Part shown: positions 4,372 to 56,826 of the stretch, one piece after another
Position numbering within the stretch: the first letter of the stretch is position 1
Layout: each line of letters opens with the position of its first letter
Source: a virus
IMG/VR virus record: IMGVR_UViG_3300045988_168418
Strand: one strand, 5' to 3'
DNA length: 56,826 nt
Made by a program: the position numbers and the translations under genes
The notes under the pieces: generated by a model
Seen by the model: the letters and a program-made list of their open reading frames with translations, nothing else
Database searches by the model: none
Told to the model about the DNA's origin: nothing

Positions 4372-5341
4372 ATTTTAAAGTAAGGAGGAGCATAAAATGA
4401 GTGCAAAAAACGTCCTAACTAATTTTGAGATAATTGATACTGAAGAAAAAGCTTATTGGCTAGGTTTTTTATATGCGGATGGAAGTGTTGGTTCTAAAGA
4501 AGATAAAATAGAATTGGGGCTTGCTGAAAAAGATTTAAAACATATAGAAAAATTTAGAGATTTTATGAATATAACTAATAAAATTAGCTATAGAGAAAGA
4601 ACAAAATCTTATAGAATGAGTTTTAGGAGTGCTCAATGTAAACAGGATTTAATAGATAAAGGGTGCGTTCCTAAAAAATCATTAATTCTTGATTTTCCAA
4701 ATGAAAAACAAGTACCAAAACATTTAATTAGACATTTTATAAGAGGGTATTTTGATGGCGATGGATGGTTTACAAATACAGAAAGTTGTTTTCAAATAGG
4801 TATAATTGGAACTGAAAATTTTATAAATGGATTTTTAAATTCTATTGAGAATATAAATAAAGATAATAAAATTTTTGATGTTCATAGAAAACATGGAGCT
4901 AAACGATATGTTTTTGGAGCTTATGATGATGTTTTAAATTTTTTAAATTGGATATATAAAGATTCAAATATTTATTTAGAAAGAAAATATGCTAGCTATT
5001 TAGACTTTATACAAAATGGAAGTAAGTATCATAAAATAAAATAAAAATTTTTGCCGTATATTAGAGAAATTTAATATATGATTATTGCGGAATTAAGCGG
5101 GGAAGGCTGAGATGCTAACCCGAACCGAAGGTTATAGGAACTATAGTCAGGGGCAACGCATAGATGGTGAAAAGATATAATCCATCCACGAGTCCGCAAC
5201 ACAGCATTATATAGGAATGCTTGAGACTATCTCACCAATAGTCAAACCTAACGTAAAACGAGGGTGAAAAGATATGCTAAGCTTATACGAAAAAGAAGTA
5301 TAAGAACTAAAGGATAAAAAGCCTTTAGGATAATATAACTG
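4363..5341 (+). other. Group I self-splicing intron interrupting terL (approximate ends: 5' splice after U4362, omega-G at 5341)
   Basis: terL homology resumes in-frame at 5342 with no start codon; a 7-bp P4-like pairing 'ttgcgga' (5085-5091) / 'tccgcaa' (5193-5199) resembles P/Q elements; R-like 'gagacta' (5223-5229) and S-like 'aagatataatcc' (5172-5183); contains a free-standing LAGLIDADG ORF. Confidence 0.55.
4397..5044 (+). CDS. LAGLIDADG homing endonuclease (intron-encoded, two-motif monomeric type)
   Basis: Motifs 'YWLGFLYADGSV' and 'RGYFDGDGWF'; own RBS 'aaggagg' upstream of the ATG at 4397. Confidence 0.85.
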   Translation: MSAKNVLTNFEIIDTEEKAYWLGFLYADGSVGSKEDKIELGLAEKDLKHIEKFRDFMNITNKISYRERTKSYRMSFRSAQCKQDLIDKGCVPKKSLILDFPNEKQVPKHLIRHFIRGYFDGDGWFTNTESCFQIGIIGTENFINGFLNSIENINKDNKIFDVHRKHGAKRYVFGAYDDVLNFLNWIYKDSNIYLERKYASYLDFIQNGSKYHKIK

Positions 5342-53600: not shown

Positions 53601-54493
53601 ATGTCAAAGTCTTCACATAAATCTCTCACTTTTTCGATGTTATGAAAGCCTCTTTCTATCTCTTGAGAAGTAAGACTTAAATGTTTGATTAAATCCTCTG
53701 TATCCATTAAATAAGTTGTGGAGTAAAAAGAATCTACTTCTCTTTCTCCTTCTTTTGCTTTTAAAAAAGCTTTATGTATTTCTCTATCTTCTGCTTTAAG
53801 ATAATGTGTATCACAAGTTATTATATAATCTATATTTAATTCTCTTGATATATCTATAAGTTTAGAATTAACATAAGTTTGTTCTGCTGAAGCAGAAGGT
53901 TGTAACTCAAGATAAAAATAATCTTTTCCGCCAAAGGTACGACACATTAGTTTACACCAATTAAGAATTTTTTCCCATAATTTATCATCATTAGATTGCT
54001 TATGCTCAAGTAATTTAGTTGGTAGAAATCCACCCAAACATGCAGTACTCGCAACAACATGACCTGGATTAGCACCGATAATTTCTATTATATCTTCATA
54101 ATAGGTTGGAACTCTACGCATGCCTCTACTTTTGTAACTTCTTAACCATGCTCGCGTAGATAATTCACAAATTTGTTGAAAGCCTATTTTATCTTTTGCT
54201 AATAAGACAAAATGATAATACTTATCTTCTTCAGTTATAAAATTATCTTTATTTAAGCCGTCTCTGCATAAATAAATTTCATTTCCCATAATAATTTTAA
54301 TTTTGTCTTTAAGTTTGTCTTTTATTTTAGAGATTTTAACAGCAGAGGCAATAGTCTCATGATCTGTTATTGCAACAACAGAATGACCTAATTCAATGGC
54401 TCTGTTAATTAAATCTTCTTCTTTAATAATACAATCTCTTAAACGAAAATTAGACATTTGGGTATGATTATGTAAAGAGCCTGTATAGTTCAT
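50579..54493 (-). CDS. dnaE: DNA polymerase III alpha subunit (DnaE-type, N-terminal PHP domain)
   Basis: PHP domain 'LHNHTQMSNFRLRDC...VVAITDHE'; 1304 aa; overall DnaE-like layout. Confidence 0.7.
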   Translation of the reverse strand: MNYTGSLHNHTQMSNFRLRDCIIKEEDLINRAIELGHSVVAITDHETIASAVKISKIKDKLKDKIKIIMGNEIYLCRDGLNKDNFITEEDKYYHFVLLAKDKIGFQQICELSTRAWLRSYKSRGMRRVPTYYEDIIEIIGANPGHVVASTACLGGFLPTKLLEHKQSNDDKLWEKILNWCKLMCRTFGGKDYFYLELQPSASAEQTYVNSKLIDISRELNIDYIITCDTHYLKAEDREIHKAFLKAKEGEREVDSFYSTTYLMDTEDLIKHLSLTSQEIERGFHNIEKVRDLCEDFDIRKPLKIPTLQWNNYSSIEVTEGWIDRIPFFKTFLDSDYIGDKVLVKAIIHGILTHPDLQNKEAYDEINSNLETTWLSSNVNKTHWSAYYLNLQKIIDLCWEAGSIVGPGRGSGVGFILLYCLGITQINPLREETKCYAWRFLNPERVSVLDIDFDIEGGRRPQVLNKFREFYGEDRVANVLTFRTEKSKAAILTAARGLGYDNDIASYLASLIPSDRGQLRTLKEVFYGNKEKDFKPNTIFVNEMTNNYPDLWEVAQGIEGLICGTGIHAGGVIFVDEPFTKSTALMRAPDGTITTQFDLHDAEEVSLIKYDALSVEAMDKIHACLNLLIEDKKIIKKPTLRETYEEVIGVYNIERDDLKMWEMVWNHKILSLFQMEQQSGIQGIKLAKPRSVNDLSVLNSVIRLMAPDKNSKTPLEMWAIYRKDINVWIREMERYGLSKEEIKWLSNHSAITNGICESQEGLMSLVQEPRLGGNSLTFADKCRKGIAKKQGKLFQECEDIFYENIKKNNCSETLAHYVWDVLLKVQRGYSFNRSHCLAYSLVALQEMNLAYKYPIIYWNTACLIVNSGSIETYKEKDDEIEYEITDESEEKKKEKTTDYAKMAQALGEIIDRGIKVSLVDINKSDYSFKPDAENNEILFGMKALSNVGTPIIEQIFSGRPYKSIKDFMIRCPLNKSAMISLIKSGAFDKLELEWAKELNVEPRVLVMIYYLSVVSEPKKRLTLQNFNGLIQKDLIPPSLDSMKRLFFFNKYLKTEKKVGKYYVFDDACEKFYNQRYDMEDLEVINGCVCILQNKWDKKYQKGMDRARDWLKENQQTVLKEFNEALFLDSWNKYAKGNISAWEMESLCFYYHPHELINIDTLKYGISDFSKLPEEPVVDYFFKRNGKEIPIYKTYKIIGTVISKNDARSSISLLTTSGVVNVKFTKDYFAMFGRQISEKQEDGTKKVMEKGWFQRGTKVMCTGFRRGDTFQTKSYKHTPTHQLYKIIDVNGSDMKLEHVRYGMEGE

Positions 54494-54576
54494 TTTAATT
54501 AACCTCGCTTATTTGTATAATACTATTTCTATTAAATTAAATAAATAAAATTATTTATACTATTAAAATATATTAT

Positions 54577-54605
54577 ATTATATTATATTTTTTTATTATT
54601 GTCAA
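54577..54605 (-). promoter_or_regulatory. Consensus sigma-70 promoter for dnaE: TTGACA, 17-nt spacer, TATAAT (minus strand)
   Basis: Plus-strand 'tgtcaa' at 54600-54605 and 'attata' at 54577-54582; GAGG RBS before the ATG at 54493. Confidence 0.6.
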
Positions 54606-54750
54606 TACATCTTTTACATTTAATCATTTCTATAGAGTCCCTACCAAGCTCTCTATAGAAAAGATTATATCCTTCAAAAAGAAAAAGCCTATTACATTTA
54701 TTACATCTTTTTGGGATAATTGCATACTTATCATAATAAGTTATTGTCAT
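54583..54750 (-). CDS. Small zinc-ribbon protein (55 aa; two CxxC pairs); not in the supplied ORF track
   Basis: Manual translation 'MTITYYDKYAIIPKRCNKCNRLFLFEGYNLFYRELGRDSIEMIKCKRCIDNNKKI'; ATG 3 nt after the helicase stop. Confidence 0.4.
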   Translation of the reverse strand: MTITYYDKYAIIPKRCNKCNRLFLFEGYNLFYRELGRDSIEMIKCKRCIDNNKKI

Positions 54751-54753
54751 ATT

Positions 54754-55884
54754 TTATTCATTCCTTATTAAAACTAATTTTTCGCTTGCCCGTGTAACTG
54801 TAGTGTATAGCCAACGTGCATGTTCTGTCTTGTCAAAAGGAAAAGCTTCCTCAATAACTAAGACTTTATCCCATTCACTTCCTTGCGACTTATGTCCCGT
54901 AATAGCGTACGCGTATGCGAATTCTTTAGGAACTACATCTCCGATTTTATCTTTTAATTTCCCTAATTGATAAGCTACTTTCCAATCACAGCATCTTTCT
55001 CCATTTAAAATTAGTTGTTTATCTACAAGAACATAATTAAATGAAGTATTTTTATCAATAATAAAATCTGAGCTAATCATCTCTAATTTACGTTTATCAG
55101 CTTTTATAAATCGCGGAATTGTATAAAAAGTTTCAAAAGGATTTTTTAAATAGCCAATAGTTCCATTTACTAATGAGTCTCCATTTTCATTAATATCATC
55201 CCAATAATTTCTTAAACAGATAACTTTATCTCCATCTTCTGGGAGTGATCCCCGCTCCAATAAAGTTCTCATCTGGTTATTGATATTTTGACGAGTCGCA
55301 TTTGTTCCTACCAAAATTTGATCCGCCCAAGTAAGCATCCCTGTATTTAAAGTTTCTTTTGATAAGACTTTAACATTATTTCCATTAAATAAAGAAATTG
55401 GTTCTCTTTTTCTAATTTTCATAGATAGTTGAATAATTTCAGAATCTTCCGCCTGCCGCATAATTTCATCTAAGAATATATGCGGATGGTCTAATAAATG
55501 ATTATCTTCATCTTTGTTAATTGGTGGAAGCTGAAACGGATCTCCTAAGCAAATAATATGACATCTATGAGATGCGAGTAATTCCATCAATGATTTAGGT
55601 GCCATGGAAATTTCATCAACTACTACAACTGAATATGGAATATCTTTTTTTGGTTTTCTAAAGAAACCGCCTTCTAGCTTTGGAAAATGGTCATATAAAA
55701 GTTTATGTAAAGTGCAAACGTTGTGATTTCCTTTTTTCTTTAAAACCTCTGCGGCTTTCCCAGTAAAAGCAGTATAACACACTTTATTTATATCAATATT
55801 TAAAGCTTCAATTATAAATTTTACTAAGCTACTTTTGCCAGTTCCAGCATTTAGGCGTAGCCGCTGATGACGGTATATTTTTCT
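54754..55884 (-). CDS. RecD/Dda-like SF1 helicase, main ORF; the frame carrying Walker A ('NAGTGKS') has no start codon and is displaced by -1 from the N-terminal fragment at 55851-55946
   Basis: Motifs 'AGTGKS' (Walker A), 'VVVDEISM' (II), 'CLGDPFQLPPI' (III), 'ITGHKSQGSEW' (V), 'YTTVTRASEKL' (VI); the open frame extends upstream of the track's GTG start to 55884. Confidence 0.7.
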   Translation of the reverse strand, partial: RKIYRHQRLRLNAGTGKSSLVKFIIEALNIDINKVCYTAFTGKAAEVLKKKGNHNVCTLHKLLYDHFPKLEGGFFRKPKKDIPYSVVVVDEISMAPKSLMELLASHRCHIICLGDPFQLPPINKDEDNHLLDHPHIFLDEIMRQAEDSEIIQLSMKIRKREPISLFNGNNVKVLSKETLNTGMLTWADQILVGTNATRQNINNQMRTLLERGSLPEDGDKVICLRNYWDDINENGDSLVNGTIGYLKNPFETFYTIPRFIKADKRKLEMISSDFIIDKNTSFNYVLVDKQLILNGERCCDWKVAYQLGKLKDKIGDVVPKEFAYAYAITGHKSQGSEWDKVLVIEEAFPFDKTEHARWLYTTVTRASEKLVLIRNE

Positions 55885-55946
55885 TTATTTTTCCATCTTT
55901 CAACGGCTACTTTCAAACCTTGTTCTTGTTTTTTTGTTAAAATCAT
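55851..55946 (-). CDS. Helicase N-terminal fragment (31 aa, 'MILTKKQEQGLKVAVERWKNKEKYTVISGYA'), ending in TAA just before the Walker A codons
   Basis: ATG directly after the HNH stop; removing 8 nt 'taaatgct' would give the perfect 'ISGYAGTGKS'. Confidence 0.5.
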   Translation of the reverse strand: MILTKKQEQGLKVAVERWKNKEKYTVISGYA

Positions 55947-55947
55947 A

Positions 55948-56310
55948 TCAAGAATCCCTTTCTTCAATATTTTTATTTAAATCTTCCAGTTTCCATATAT
56001 TATCATGCAACTCTCTATGACAATTAGCACACAATAAAATACATTTTTTACTTTCCTCAATAGCTTCTTTTAATCTAAAATGATCGTTACTAATAGTAAA
56101 ATCTTTTTTAGAAGGATCTAAATGATGAAATTCTAATGCTTTAATGCATTTATTATAGCCACATCTTTCACAATATCCTCCACGAAAAAATTTTATTTTT
56201 GCAAGAAAATCTCCTCTTTTTAATTGAGTTCCTTCTGGCATACATTCATAACAGCAACTTCTTTGATTTGCCGATGGAGTTTTTGGTTTAAAAATTTTTT
56301 CGCAAATCAA
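55948..56310 (-). CDS. HNH endonuclease
   Basis: 'EFHHLDP...' and 'CANCHRELH' HNH core plus Cys pairs 'CCYEC' and 'CERCG'. Confidence 0.8.
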   Translation of the reverse strand: MICEKIFKPKTPSANQRSCCYECMPEGTQLKRGDFLAKIKFFRGGYCERCGYNKCIKALEFHHLDPSKKDFTISNDHFRLKEAIEESKKCILLCANCHRELHDNIWKLEDLNKNIEERDS

Positions 56311-56345
56311 ACAATATTTTTCTTTGCAATTATTTTGTTTTTCTT

Positions 56346-56477
56346 TTAATGTTTTATTTTTTTTGTTTCTGCATATCTAATTCTTCTCGCAGCATTTGTA
56401 CACTCATTACTGCAATATTTTTTTGTTGATTTTATAGCTTCAAAATTTTTTCCACAAATTACACATTTATTAATCAT
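56346..56477 (-). CDS. Small zinc-ribbon protein (43 aa), the HNH-associated type; not in the ORF track
   Basis: Manual translation 'MINKCVICGKNFEAIKSTKKYCSNECTNAARRIRYAETKKIKH'. Confidence 0.45.
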   Translation of the reverse strand: MINKCVICGKNFEAIKSTKKYCSNECTNAARRIRYAETKKIKH

Positions 56478-56519
56478 ATTTTACATCTCCTTTTATTTGA
56501 TATTATATATAAAATATGA

Positions 56520-56657
56520 TTAATATTTTTCGTTTAATTTGACCAAAAAAGATTTATCTAACGATGCATATCCAGATATTACAGTATATTTTTCTTTATT
56601 TTTATATCTTTCTATTGCAATGCGTAATCCTTGTTCTTGTTTATTTGTTAATTTCAT
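56520..56657 (-). pseudogene. Degenerate duplicate of the helicase 5' end (45 aa; Walker A decayed from GTGKS to SLDKS)
   Basis: 'MKLTNKQEQGLRIAIERYKNKEKYTVISGYASLDKSFLVKL' versus 'MILTKKQEQGLKVAVERWKNKEKYTVISGYA' + 'GTGKSSLVKF'. Confidence 0.55.
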
Positions 56658-56826
56658 AATATTTCAACAACCTTTCCATAAATTTGAGCTCGACTTACCC
56701 AACCATTCACATGACCATGATTATTAGATATTTGATAGCTCTTATTATTTTTTATTGCGGAAATTTTATGTAAATAAAAATGATCTGAAACTTTTACAAA
56801 CACAATATCATTTTTATTTAATTCAG
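56656..56826 (-). CDS. 3' end of a gene that continues beyond the window ('...SDHFYLHKISAIKNNKSYQISNNHGHVNGW...'; possibly a metallophosphoesterase-like C-terminus); its stop overlaps the next ATG
   Basis: Open frame from the window edge to a TGA overlapping the ATG at 56657. Confidence 0.3.

Follow-up and report, generated by a model that had tools for sequence, protein, structure and literature searches.

How does a phage keep a helicase gene intact when its reading frame is broken within the gene's most conserved codons? The question is raised by IMG/VR virus record IMGVR_UViG_3300045988_168418, a stretch of 56,826 nucleotides (nt) that we refer to as the window. Its minus strand holds, in order and within the span given in the original prediction for this DNA, a partial copy of a helicase 5' end (copy 1), a Zn-ribbon open reading frame (ORF), an ORF for an HNH endonuclease, and the start of the helicase once more (copy 2). 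We consider this region to be, probably, a mobile HNH homing-endonuclease cassette aimed at the P-loop (Walker A) DNA of phage Dda/RecD-like helicase genes, with its target disrupted by an insert that is bypassed in translation, an arrangement analogous, not homologous, to T4 gene 60/MobA. We assign this joint reading a probability of about 0.62. The anatomy of the locus, the footprints of mobility, the grammar of insert and hairpin, the persistence of the insert in endonuclease-free alleles, and purifying selection on the helicase were all established by computation.

A helicase gene interrupted at Walker A

The helicase body, a Dda/RecD-like member of superfamily 1 (SF1), extends for 363 codons from Walker A (GTGKS) to the stop (54754..55845, minus strand, as are all features of the window given here) and is 99.8% identical to that of the related IMG/VR sequence L001. 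The true N-terminus of this protein is encoded by copy 2 (55854..55946), whose 31 codons, MILTKKQEQGLKVAVERWKNKEKYTVISGYA, begin at an ATG (55946) two bases after the end of the HNH ORF and end in GCC (Ala31; 55856-55854), the proposed take-off codon. Copy 2 had been described as a functional-looking helicase start, but after its 31 codons (..ISGYA) a TAA follows directly behind GCC (55853-55851), and AGTGKS and the complete helicase body lie in the -1 frame relative to copy 2. The frame breaks at Walker A because of an 8-nt insert, TAAATGCT (55846..55853), which is absent from L001 and from two further relatives, L002 and L003. It consists of the TAA, AT, and GCT (55848-55846), the proposed landing codon. 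The junction reads GCC-TAAATGCT-GGA, and decoding would restart at GGA (55845-55843). No in-frame start codon is present in the body frame upstream of Walker A.

When Ala31 is joined to GTGKS, the resulting protein has the features of its helicase family: Pfam domains AAA_30 (2.3e-23), AAA_19 (1.2e-18), and UvrD_C_2 (2.8e-16), and a Walker A motif of the form GxxxxGK[ST]. It aligns unbroken, over residues 1-390, to Dda-like helicases of Enterococcus phages (42% identity, 99% of length). Gene callers break interrupted helicases into a 31-residue ORF and an N-terminally truncated ORF without Walker A, which makes these genes a practical warning for annotation. The same junction, GGCTACGCCTAAATGCTGGAACT, was present in all 10 contigs that we read, from different samples and assemblers (ENA/Logan), together with an identical frameshift in the endonuclease gene.

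Relatives without the HNH gene reveal the empty site. L001-L003 carry an uninterrupted helicase of 394 residues, 96-98% identical in amino acid sequence to that of the window, and lack the upstream block. From two bases before the helicase ATG, L001 and the window are 99.3% identical over 5.9 kb; 34 of their 43 differences fall in 55932-55840 and only 9 in the next 5.8 kb. This foreign patch (55840..55932) contains 26 substitutions and the 8-nt insert relative to L001. Upstream of the helicase ATG, a 1.28-kb block of the window lineage, which holds copy 1 and the endonuclease gene as well as two small ORFs, stands in place of 34 nt of L001. Given this block and the sharply bounded foreign patch ending at the P-loop, the region bears the signature of a cassette gained by horizontal transfer, together with a short tract of co-conversion; presence/absence polymorphism and a co-converted flank both mark it as mobile. 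The footprint of a homing-endonuclease insertion at the 5' end of the helicase gene was therefore read correctly in the original prediction. That the target had been duplicated in this genome was not, since copy 1 arrived with the block.

Other pairs of loci place the boundary at the same site. The breakpoint between the window and L001 lies at 55840. L048 and L049 are 100% identical from -720 to +8, through GGAACAGG, and only 40-70% identical thereafter, and L049 and L058 display the reverse pattern. An identical cassette is thus found on helicase bodies that are themselves unrelated, and identity breaks off at the P-loop. Three independent pairs break within a few nucleotides of the P-loop codons, which makes cleavage there likely. 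The P-loop sequence is disrupted in both helicase-derived segments, by the insert in copy 2 and by a replacement in copy 1. Together, the breakpoints and the disrupted codons suggest that the endonuclease would cleave the cassette-free allele and that the carrier would be immune.

Insert, hairpin, and selection in divergent alleles

Using the endonuclease as a query in IMG/VR and JGI metagenomes, we found dozens of loci in which it lies directly upstream of helicases 40-66% identical to that of the window. Every helicase-adjacent member of this HNH family is followed by a 31-codon N-terminus ending in GGC TAC GCY, a short insert, and then GGN ACN GGN AAR. The insert is also found without the endonuclease. 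Among about 80 helicase alleles sampled without bias, 14 (about 17%) contain it: 10 clearly lack the endonuclease, 3 have it, and 1 could not be assigned. In the endonuclease-free alleles, ordinary phage genes adjoin the helicase start. An exact search of IMG/VR for the junction gave no match, a megablast search of GenBank with the region found nothing, and no cultured phage with an interrupted allele was found there, which leaves the element without a relative that is annotated or amenable to experiment.

For the comparisons that follow, we pooled 37 distinct interrupted and 67 distinct uninterrupted alleles. The interrupted alleles comprise 24 insert types of 5, 6, 7, 8, or 11 nt, of which 23 open with TAA, TGA, or TAG. 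The last three bases before GGN are GCN in 13 types, GTN in 5, ACY in 6, and TCG in 1; none is more than one mismatch away from an Ala codon. A cognate landing codon, GCN, is available in 13 of the 24 types, including that of the window (GCC to GCT), and a near-cognate one (ACY, GTN, or TCG) in 11. Across inserts, the frame correction needed is 0, +1, or +2, and in the 6-nt class the stop is in frame with the body. L053 and L055 are colinear and 98% identical in helicase protein, and a single nucleotide gained or lost separates their inserts (8 and 7 nt). Within the 5-nt class, take-off and landing codons co-vary in their third bases, as they do in the close relatives L069 (GCT..ACT) and L070 (GCC..ACC). 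An independent variant lies inside the P-loop itself, at about 5454-5475 of L016 (the same contig as L064). There, GGA GTT GGT TA GGT AAA ACA places identical GGT Gly codons at a 5-nt offset on either side of a TAG; a hop from GGT to GGT would restore GVGKT.

The one insert type that does not open with a stop is CGGTG (L062 and L071 junctions). It is stop-free, and its A-site codon, CGG, is possibly a rare 'hungry' codon in a low-GC host, in parallel with the AGG variants of gene 60 homologues. We had also considered a 'CGG' junction in L012 and L013 as a double +1 frameshift site; this candidate was dropped, as the helicase there is fragmented in several places. Elsewhere, every in-frame TAG of a helicase body coincides with a conserved Gln (for example, WAD*IL versus WADQIL; L048/L050, L066, L068, L069, L070, and L126). 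This points to TAG-to-Gln recoding (code 15) in these phages, and their junction stop is always TAA or TGA. The apparent premature stops, all of this kind, were accordingly dropped as signs of decay. A further interrupted allele, GCG TAACTCG GGA, lies on L286, a contig assigned to Gemmiger formicilis that may be a prophage or a binning artefact; it hints at a Clostridia-class gut bacterium as host.

The interrupted alleles also share an RNA structure. In the window, a hairpin (55857..55910) pairs a 5' arm, GUAGCCGUUGA (55910-55900), with a 3' arm, UCAGCGGCUAC (55867-55857), that ends at the Tyr codon directly before the take-off codon. Its minimum free energy (MFE) is -21.9 kcal/mol, compared with -7.5 +/- 2.4 kcal/mol for synonymous shuffles (z -5.9; 0/200 as stable). 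Over the 72 nt upstream of the junction, mean MFE is -19.8 kcal/mol in interrupted and -9.3 kcal/mol in uninterrupted alleles (p = 5e-16), with mean z values against synonymous-codon shuffles of -3.3 and -0.02, respectively. The Gly-Tyr codons are fully paired in 34/37 interrupted but only 7/67 uninterrupted alleles (p = 4e-17), and the Gly codon is GGC in 35/37 versus 12/67. When 26 alleles are aligned, 86.5% of cells pair, versus 25-53% once the 3' partner is displaced; compensatory changes are seen at five pairs, and none of 500 shuffles reaches the observed covariation score. A 5' hairpin abutting the take-off codon is thus in place as a candidate stimulatory structure.

To gauge selection on the interrupted genes, we calculated the ratio of non-synonymous to synonymous substitution rates (dN/dS) from close pairs in which both members carry the insert (dS 0.25-0.6). 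Distant cassette-bearing pairs were set aside, since their dS is saturated and evolution before and after insertion is inseparable. The ratio was 0.004 for L069/L070 (56 synonymous changes versus 1 non-synonymous), 0.03 for L053/L055, 0.045 for L269/L275, about 0.06 for L051/L052/L055, and 0.07 for L267/L270. Apart from the TAG-at-Gln codons, helicase bodies are open in 37/37 interrupted alleles, and the insert persists in 10 or more lineages without the endonuclease. The spacer diverges, whereas stop, hairpin, and near-cognate landing codon are all conserved. These helicase bodies are under strong purifying selection. Neither relaxed selection nor the further lesions typical of a pseudogene were found, in contrast to L012 (3256-7198; also L013), where the helicase is split into at least three ORFs and is a genuine pseudogene. 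In L012, the RecJ-like gene upstream is itself interrupted by a GIY-YIG-like ORF (4390-4611). For the cassette-linked 31-codon N-termini, the corresponding ratio (pN/pS) is 0.37, so that they too are under purifying selection. The low dN/dS of the downstream ORF, the pN/pS of the upstream 31 codons, and the colinear alignment of the joined protein are indirect signs that one functional polypeptide may be made. The original prediction missed this conserved, stop-containing insert and its upstream hairpin, which recur in dozens of divergent alleles under purifying selection.

Proposed hopping over the insert and its alternatives

Because selection preserves the interrupted gene across many phages, the most likely reading is that the ribosome hops past the insert. 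We propose the following sequence of events. The cassette carries an endonuclease gene encoding two Zn-ribbons and an HNH domain (frameshifted in the window lineage) and, in some versions, copy 1, a disabled remnant of the helicase 5' end that perhaps serves as the upstream homology arm. It also brings a replacement helicase 5' end, copy 2, with the hairpin and with the insert after the Ala of GYA. There the insert splits GGC-TAC-GCN from GGN-ACN-GGN-AAR and might shield the carrier genome from its own endonuclease. During translation, the ribosome would pause with peptidyl-tRNA-Ala on GCC and a slowly decoded stop (elsewhere a possibly rare CGG) in the A site. The tRNA would then detach and the ribosome slide 8 nt forward, possibly aided by re-zipping of the upstream hairpin as its 3' arm leaves the ribosome. 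The outer stem of the hairpin (8-11 bp) is predicted to be inside the ribosome at take-off, and its re-zipping at the mRNA exit could pull over about the observed distance. Finally, the tRNA would re-pair with GCU and decoding would restart at GGA, yielding ...ISGYA-GTGKS.... A stop, or in one type CGG, does stand directly after the take-off codon, and one mechanism would serve for gaps of 5-11 nt in any frame, always restoring GYA-G[TSV]GK[ST], which argues for a hop.

Several observations weigh against this proposal. The hop is deduced from sequence alone, and about half of the insert types offer near-cognate landing codons (ACY, GTN, TCG). Between 3 and 7 uninterrupted alleles have a similar hairpin, which is thus not strictly diagnostic. 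The hairpin and codon statistics are moreover inflated, and allele counts overstate the number of independent events, because alleles share a co-converted 5' tract. A frameshift in the endonuclease gene of the window lineage may leave the enzyme inactive. Nothing here corresponds to the take-off stem-loop or the Shine-Dalgarno-like element (mini-SD) of gene 60, the gap of 5-11 nt being too short to hold them. Synthetic stop-hops are of low efficiency, and we know of no documented efficient natural hop this short. Hopping over matched codons has, in addition, been described as a phenomenon of synthetic constructs (PMC5009743).

The main rival is conventional recoding, in which frameshifting (+2 or +1) or readthrough at the stop leaves 1-3 extra residues between GYA and GTGKS, as in GYA-N-A-GTGKS, and the hairpin promotes the forward frameshift. 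After 1-2 skipped nucleotides, the 5-, 7-, 8-, and 11-nt inserts are indeed stop-free in the body frame. With a KA insertion, A-K-A-G-T-G-K-S still fits [AG]x4GK[ST], and upstream refolding hairpins reportedly favour +1 shifts. We nevertheless regard this explanation as unlikely. It requires three different events (+2, +1, and readthrough of the in-frame stop of the 6-nt class) in close relatives, for example L053 versus L055. GGC-TAC-GCC-TAA contains no slippery motif, and tRNA-Ala is unable to re-pair at +1 or +2; the slippery site and single fixed offset of programmed +1/-1 frameshifting are both missing. The variable 1-3 residues would moreover fall at the junction of beta-1 and the P-loop, which is invariant in 67/67 uninterrupted alleles. 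In L016, a +2 shift would give GVG-G-KT and break the Walker A spacing, whereas a hop from GGT to GGT restores it. A -1 slip in the upstream A-rich run (GAA AAA TAT) was rejected separately, as it would turn the conserved YTVISGYA strand into IYRHQRLRLNA.

Alternatively, the 31-residue peptide and the body could be made separately by termination-reinitiation and assemble non-covalently, as in T4 gp39/gp60 or the MobE-split NrdA. A conserved stop does end the 31-codon ORF, and endonuclease-split phage proteins that reassemble are already known. However, no insert class offers, close to the junction and in the frame of the body, a conserved ATG, GTG, or TTG, and there is no ribosome-binding site. 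Reinitiation was rejected, as the body frame has no start codon. Such a split would also part beta-1 from its own P-loop, without the terminal extensions of the MobA and MobE cases, and would leave the near-cognate codon before GGN unexplained. Separate translation is accordingly very improbable.

We consider it a shade less probable still that the helicase is simply dead, killed by a selfish cassette, with the insert left as a scar of repair and the bodies looking intact because the invasions are recent. T4 Dda is non-essential, so loss of the helicase could be tolerated; the gene is formally disrupted, its body lacks a start codon, movement of cassettes between alleles is clear, and L012 and L013 demonstrate that loss is possible. 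Against this stand the dN/dS values of 0.004-0.07 in insert-bearing pairs, the 37 otherwise open interrupted alleles, and the conservation of stop, landing codon, and hairpin despite a diverging spacer, as well as the retention of the insert in lineages without the endonuclease. The endonuclease is the first to decay: several endonuclease genes are broken while the helicases remain open, indicating that the helicase outlives the endonuclease.

Removal of the insert at the RNA level, by a tiny intron or RNA editing, or with copy 1 as exon 1 of an intron-containing gene, is more doubtful again, even though homing endonucleases are often intron-borne. No Rfam family matched 54400-56826 at E <= 1. 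Inserts are only 5-11 nt long, and that of the window (8 nt) is out of frame, unlike a group I or group II intron or an intein. Most loci lack copy 1, whose P-loop is destroyed and which ends in a stop of its own, and endonuclease-free alleles retain the insert. The window does derive from a metagenomic assembly, but an artefact of sequencing or assembly has a negligible chance of explaining an 8-nt junction that lies outside any homopolymer, is identical in 10 contigs, and is one of 24 insert variants at a single site in unrelated datasets.

The bypass proposal has its closest parallel in T4 gene 60/MobA (Huang 1988; Bonocora 2011; Manning & Atkins 2022). In that system, a stop or hungry codon follows the take-off codon, the take-off and landing codons match, and the insert protects against MobA; in gene 60 homologues, the bypass persists although the endonuclease has often been lost or become a pseudogene (bioRxiv 10.1101/2022.08.31.505936). 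The helicase cassettes likewise place an HNH gene beside a non-coding insert in highly conserved codons of a DNA-metabolism gene and carry a replaced 5' tract. They too often lose the endonuclease while retaining the insert. At the junction, a stop or a possibly rare codon comes right after take-off, the landing codon is cognate or near-cognate for the same tRNA, and RNA pairing 5' of take-off is proposed, as for gene 60, to drive forward movement. The two systems differ in target, which is the P-loop of an SF1 helicase here and the Toprim domain of a topoisomerase there, and in the length of the gap (5-11 nt versus 50 nt); we detected no homology to the gene 60 cassette. In addition, our alleles strongly conserve the 5' hairpin, unlike gene 60 homologues, which do not conserve their 5' stem-loop. 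The helicase gene, moreover, is not divided into two genes; it has a replaced, and sometimes duplicated, 5' end.

Other known systems share single features. Shorter counterparts of gene 60 have been "long presumed", yet as of 2016 no natural in-frame stop-hop was known; stop-hops over matched codons work in synthetic constructs, where 9 nt specify one amino acid (PMC5009743). The E. coli 'stop-hops' (Weiss et al. 1987, in PMC5009743) resemble our junctions in having matched codons around a stop and a peptidyl-tRNA that re-pairs downstream. They are engineered, however, while the sites described here are natural and conserved and have a dedicated hairpin. Yeast mitochondrial 'byp' elements (Lang 2014; Nosek 2015, in PMC5009743) are also numerous short mobile inserts in coding regions that ribosomes skip, but they are 27-55 nt long, GC-rich, mitochondrial, scattered over many genes, and without an associated endonuclease gene. 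Free-standing HNH and GIY-YIG endonucleases (T4 Mob and Seg; I-HmuI type) similarly adjoin a conserved target gene, are present or absent among close relatives, and co-convert their flanks with breakpoints at the target. Their immunity usually comes from target polymorphisms, with neither a frame-breaking insert nor a duplicated gene 5' end. Finally, in the +1 frameshift of prfB (RF2), as proposed here, a slowly decoded A-site stop triggers forward realignment of the P-site tRNA. The prfB shift is a fixed +1 on slippery CUU U with an upstream Shine-Dalgarno sequence, whereas our junctions have no slippery site, offsets of 5-11 nt, and a hairpin as the putative stimulator.

To our knowledge, T4 gene 60, with its homologues, is essentially the sole natural case of efficient programmed bypassing that has been studied well. 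We judge the chances slightly better than even that the helicase junctions form a second, independent, and far more widespread natural class: hairpin-assisted 5-11-nt 'stop-hops' in the P-loop codons of SF1 helicases. These would be seeded by an HNH endonuclease as self-immunity, then kept and bypassed after its loss, in about 17% of alleles. Full-text literature searches returned no description of this element. If ribosomes do hop, the combination of hairpin, take-off codon, stop, and near-cognate landing codon would be a minimal natural bypass signal, with dozens of variants available for mutational and structural study. It would also be the second case of a homing endonuclease protecting itself through untranslated DNA in a gene's most conserved codons. 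Searches for a stop between matched codons inside invariant motifs could reveal hidden recoding elsewhere.

The endonuclease gene, copy 1, and neighbouring features

The HNH ORF (55948..56310) encodes 120 residues from a TTG, in a frame that is open from 56376, and contains the second Zn-ribbon and the HNH domain; gene callers start it at the ATG at 56241 and obtain 97 residues. Its identification as an HNH endonuclease is borne out by a match to PHROG 2255 ('HNH endonuclease', E = 4e-26), although the Pfam HNH score of the same ORF is under the cutoff (15.9 vs 21.4 bits). Among GenBank cultured phages, no close relative of the endonuclease was found (<=45% identity). The residues CxxC...HH...N...CxxCH..H are invariant in the endonuclease alignment.

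The first Zn-ribbon (56346..56477; CxxC...CxxxC) lies in an ORF of 43 residues that an exact-protein lookup found identical on 21 contigs. Both this and the HNH ORF are present, as originally predicted, but they are not separate genes. In L016, L018, L019, and L027, they form a single gene of ~175 residues; the 43-residue ORF is colinear with residues 1-40 of such intact endonucleases, and the window endonuclease as a whole is colinear with them after a -1 shift in a run of eight A (56357..56364). The modules are in different frames in the window and in 10/10 sister contigs, and the window is the only locus with such a split, though several endonuclease genes at other loci are broken too. Since colinearity is regained only after the -1 shift, the window endonuclease is either decaying or expressed by slippage. 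With its preceding codon, the A8 run forms the heptamer A AAA AAA, at which a -1 ribosomal or transcriptional slip would fuse the Zn-ribbon ORF to the HNH frame and give a full-length protein of ~176 residues. As all 10 sister contigs examined are in this state, the endonuclease may be expressed at a low level by slippage rather than be dead.

Copy 1 (56520..56657) encodes 45 residues, MKLTNKQ...ISGYASLDKSFLVKLNEKY (in full, MKLTNKQEQGLRIAIERYKNKEKYTVISGYA-SLDKSFLVKLNEKY), with a stop at codon 46. Its similarity to copy 2, which the original prediction proposed to map, extends to 69/93 nt and 25/31 residues, and 75/93 nt are shared with L001; all other 93-nt segments of the sequence yield 25.4 +/- 4.4 nt (maximum 45). 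As 69/93 is far above any of these, the duplication of the helicase N-terminus is real. The 14-codon tail past GYA (SLDKS...) has, by itself, only marginal similarity (18/42 nt, p about 0.03); the matching tails of L015 and L017 corroborate it. Copy 1 has indeed lost Walker A, the nine bases coding for GTG being replaced (GYA-SLDKS). This was not local decay, since the GYA-SLDK[ST]-.LV tail is also found in the copy-1 remnants of L015 and L017 and is inherited. Copy 1 occurs in 10 of about 28 distinct endonuclease-bearing loci, so that the duplication belongs to some cassette versions only.

The ATG of copy 1 overlaps the TGA of an upstream ORF (ATGA), to which copy 1 is translationally coupled. 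This ORF is foreign, and copy 1 arrives with it within the mobile block. The window contains its C-terminal part (56654..56826); the full ORF of 104 residues is present in L033-L042 and absent from L001-L003, and full-length copies match Peptidase_S24 weakly. On the other side of the helicase, 3 nt past its stop, an ORF of 55 residues (54583-54750) encodes two CxxC pairs (Zn-ribbon-like) and is identical in L001.

The surrounding replication module is mosaic. In L033 (1-5249), the RecJ-like region is 88% identical to L001 and 96% to L002, but across helicase and polymerase the window lineage shares 99.3% identity with L001, pointing to frequent recombination among co-circulating phages. L033-L035, which belong to the same phage lineage, differ at a second site in this module. 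The DnaB-like replicative helicase is intact in L033 (169-1719; 516 residues) and is split into 365 + 142 residues in L034 and L035 by a GIY-YIG endonuclease ORF of 230 residues (336-1028 and 378-1070, respectively), a second homing-endonuclease polymorphism in the replication module.

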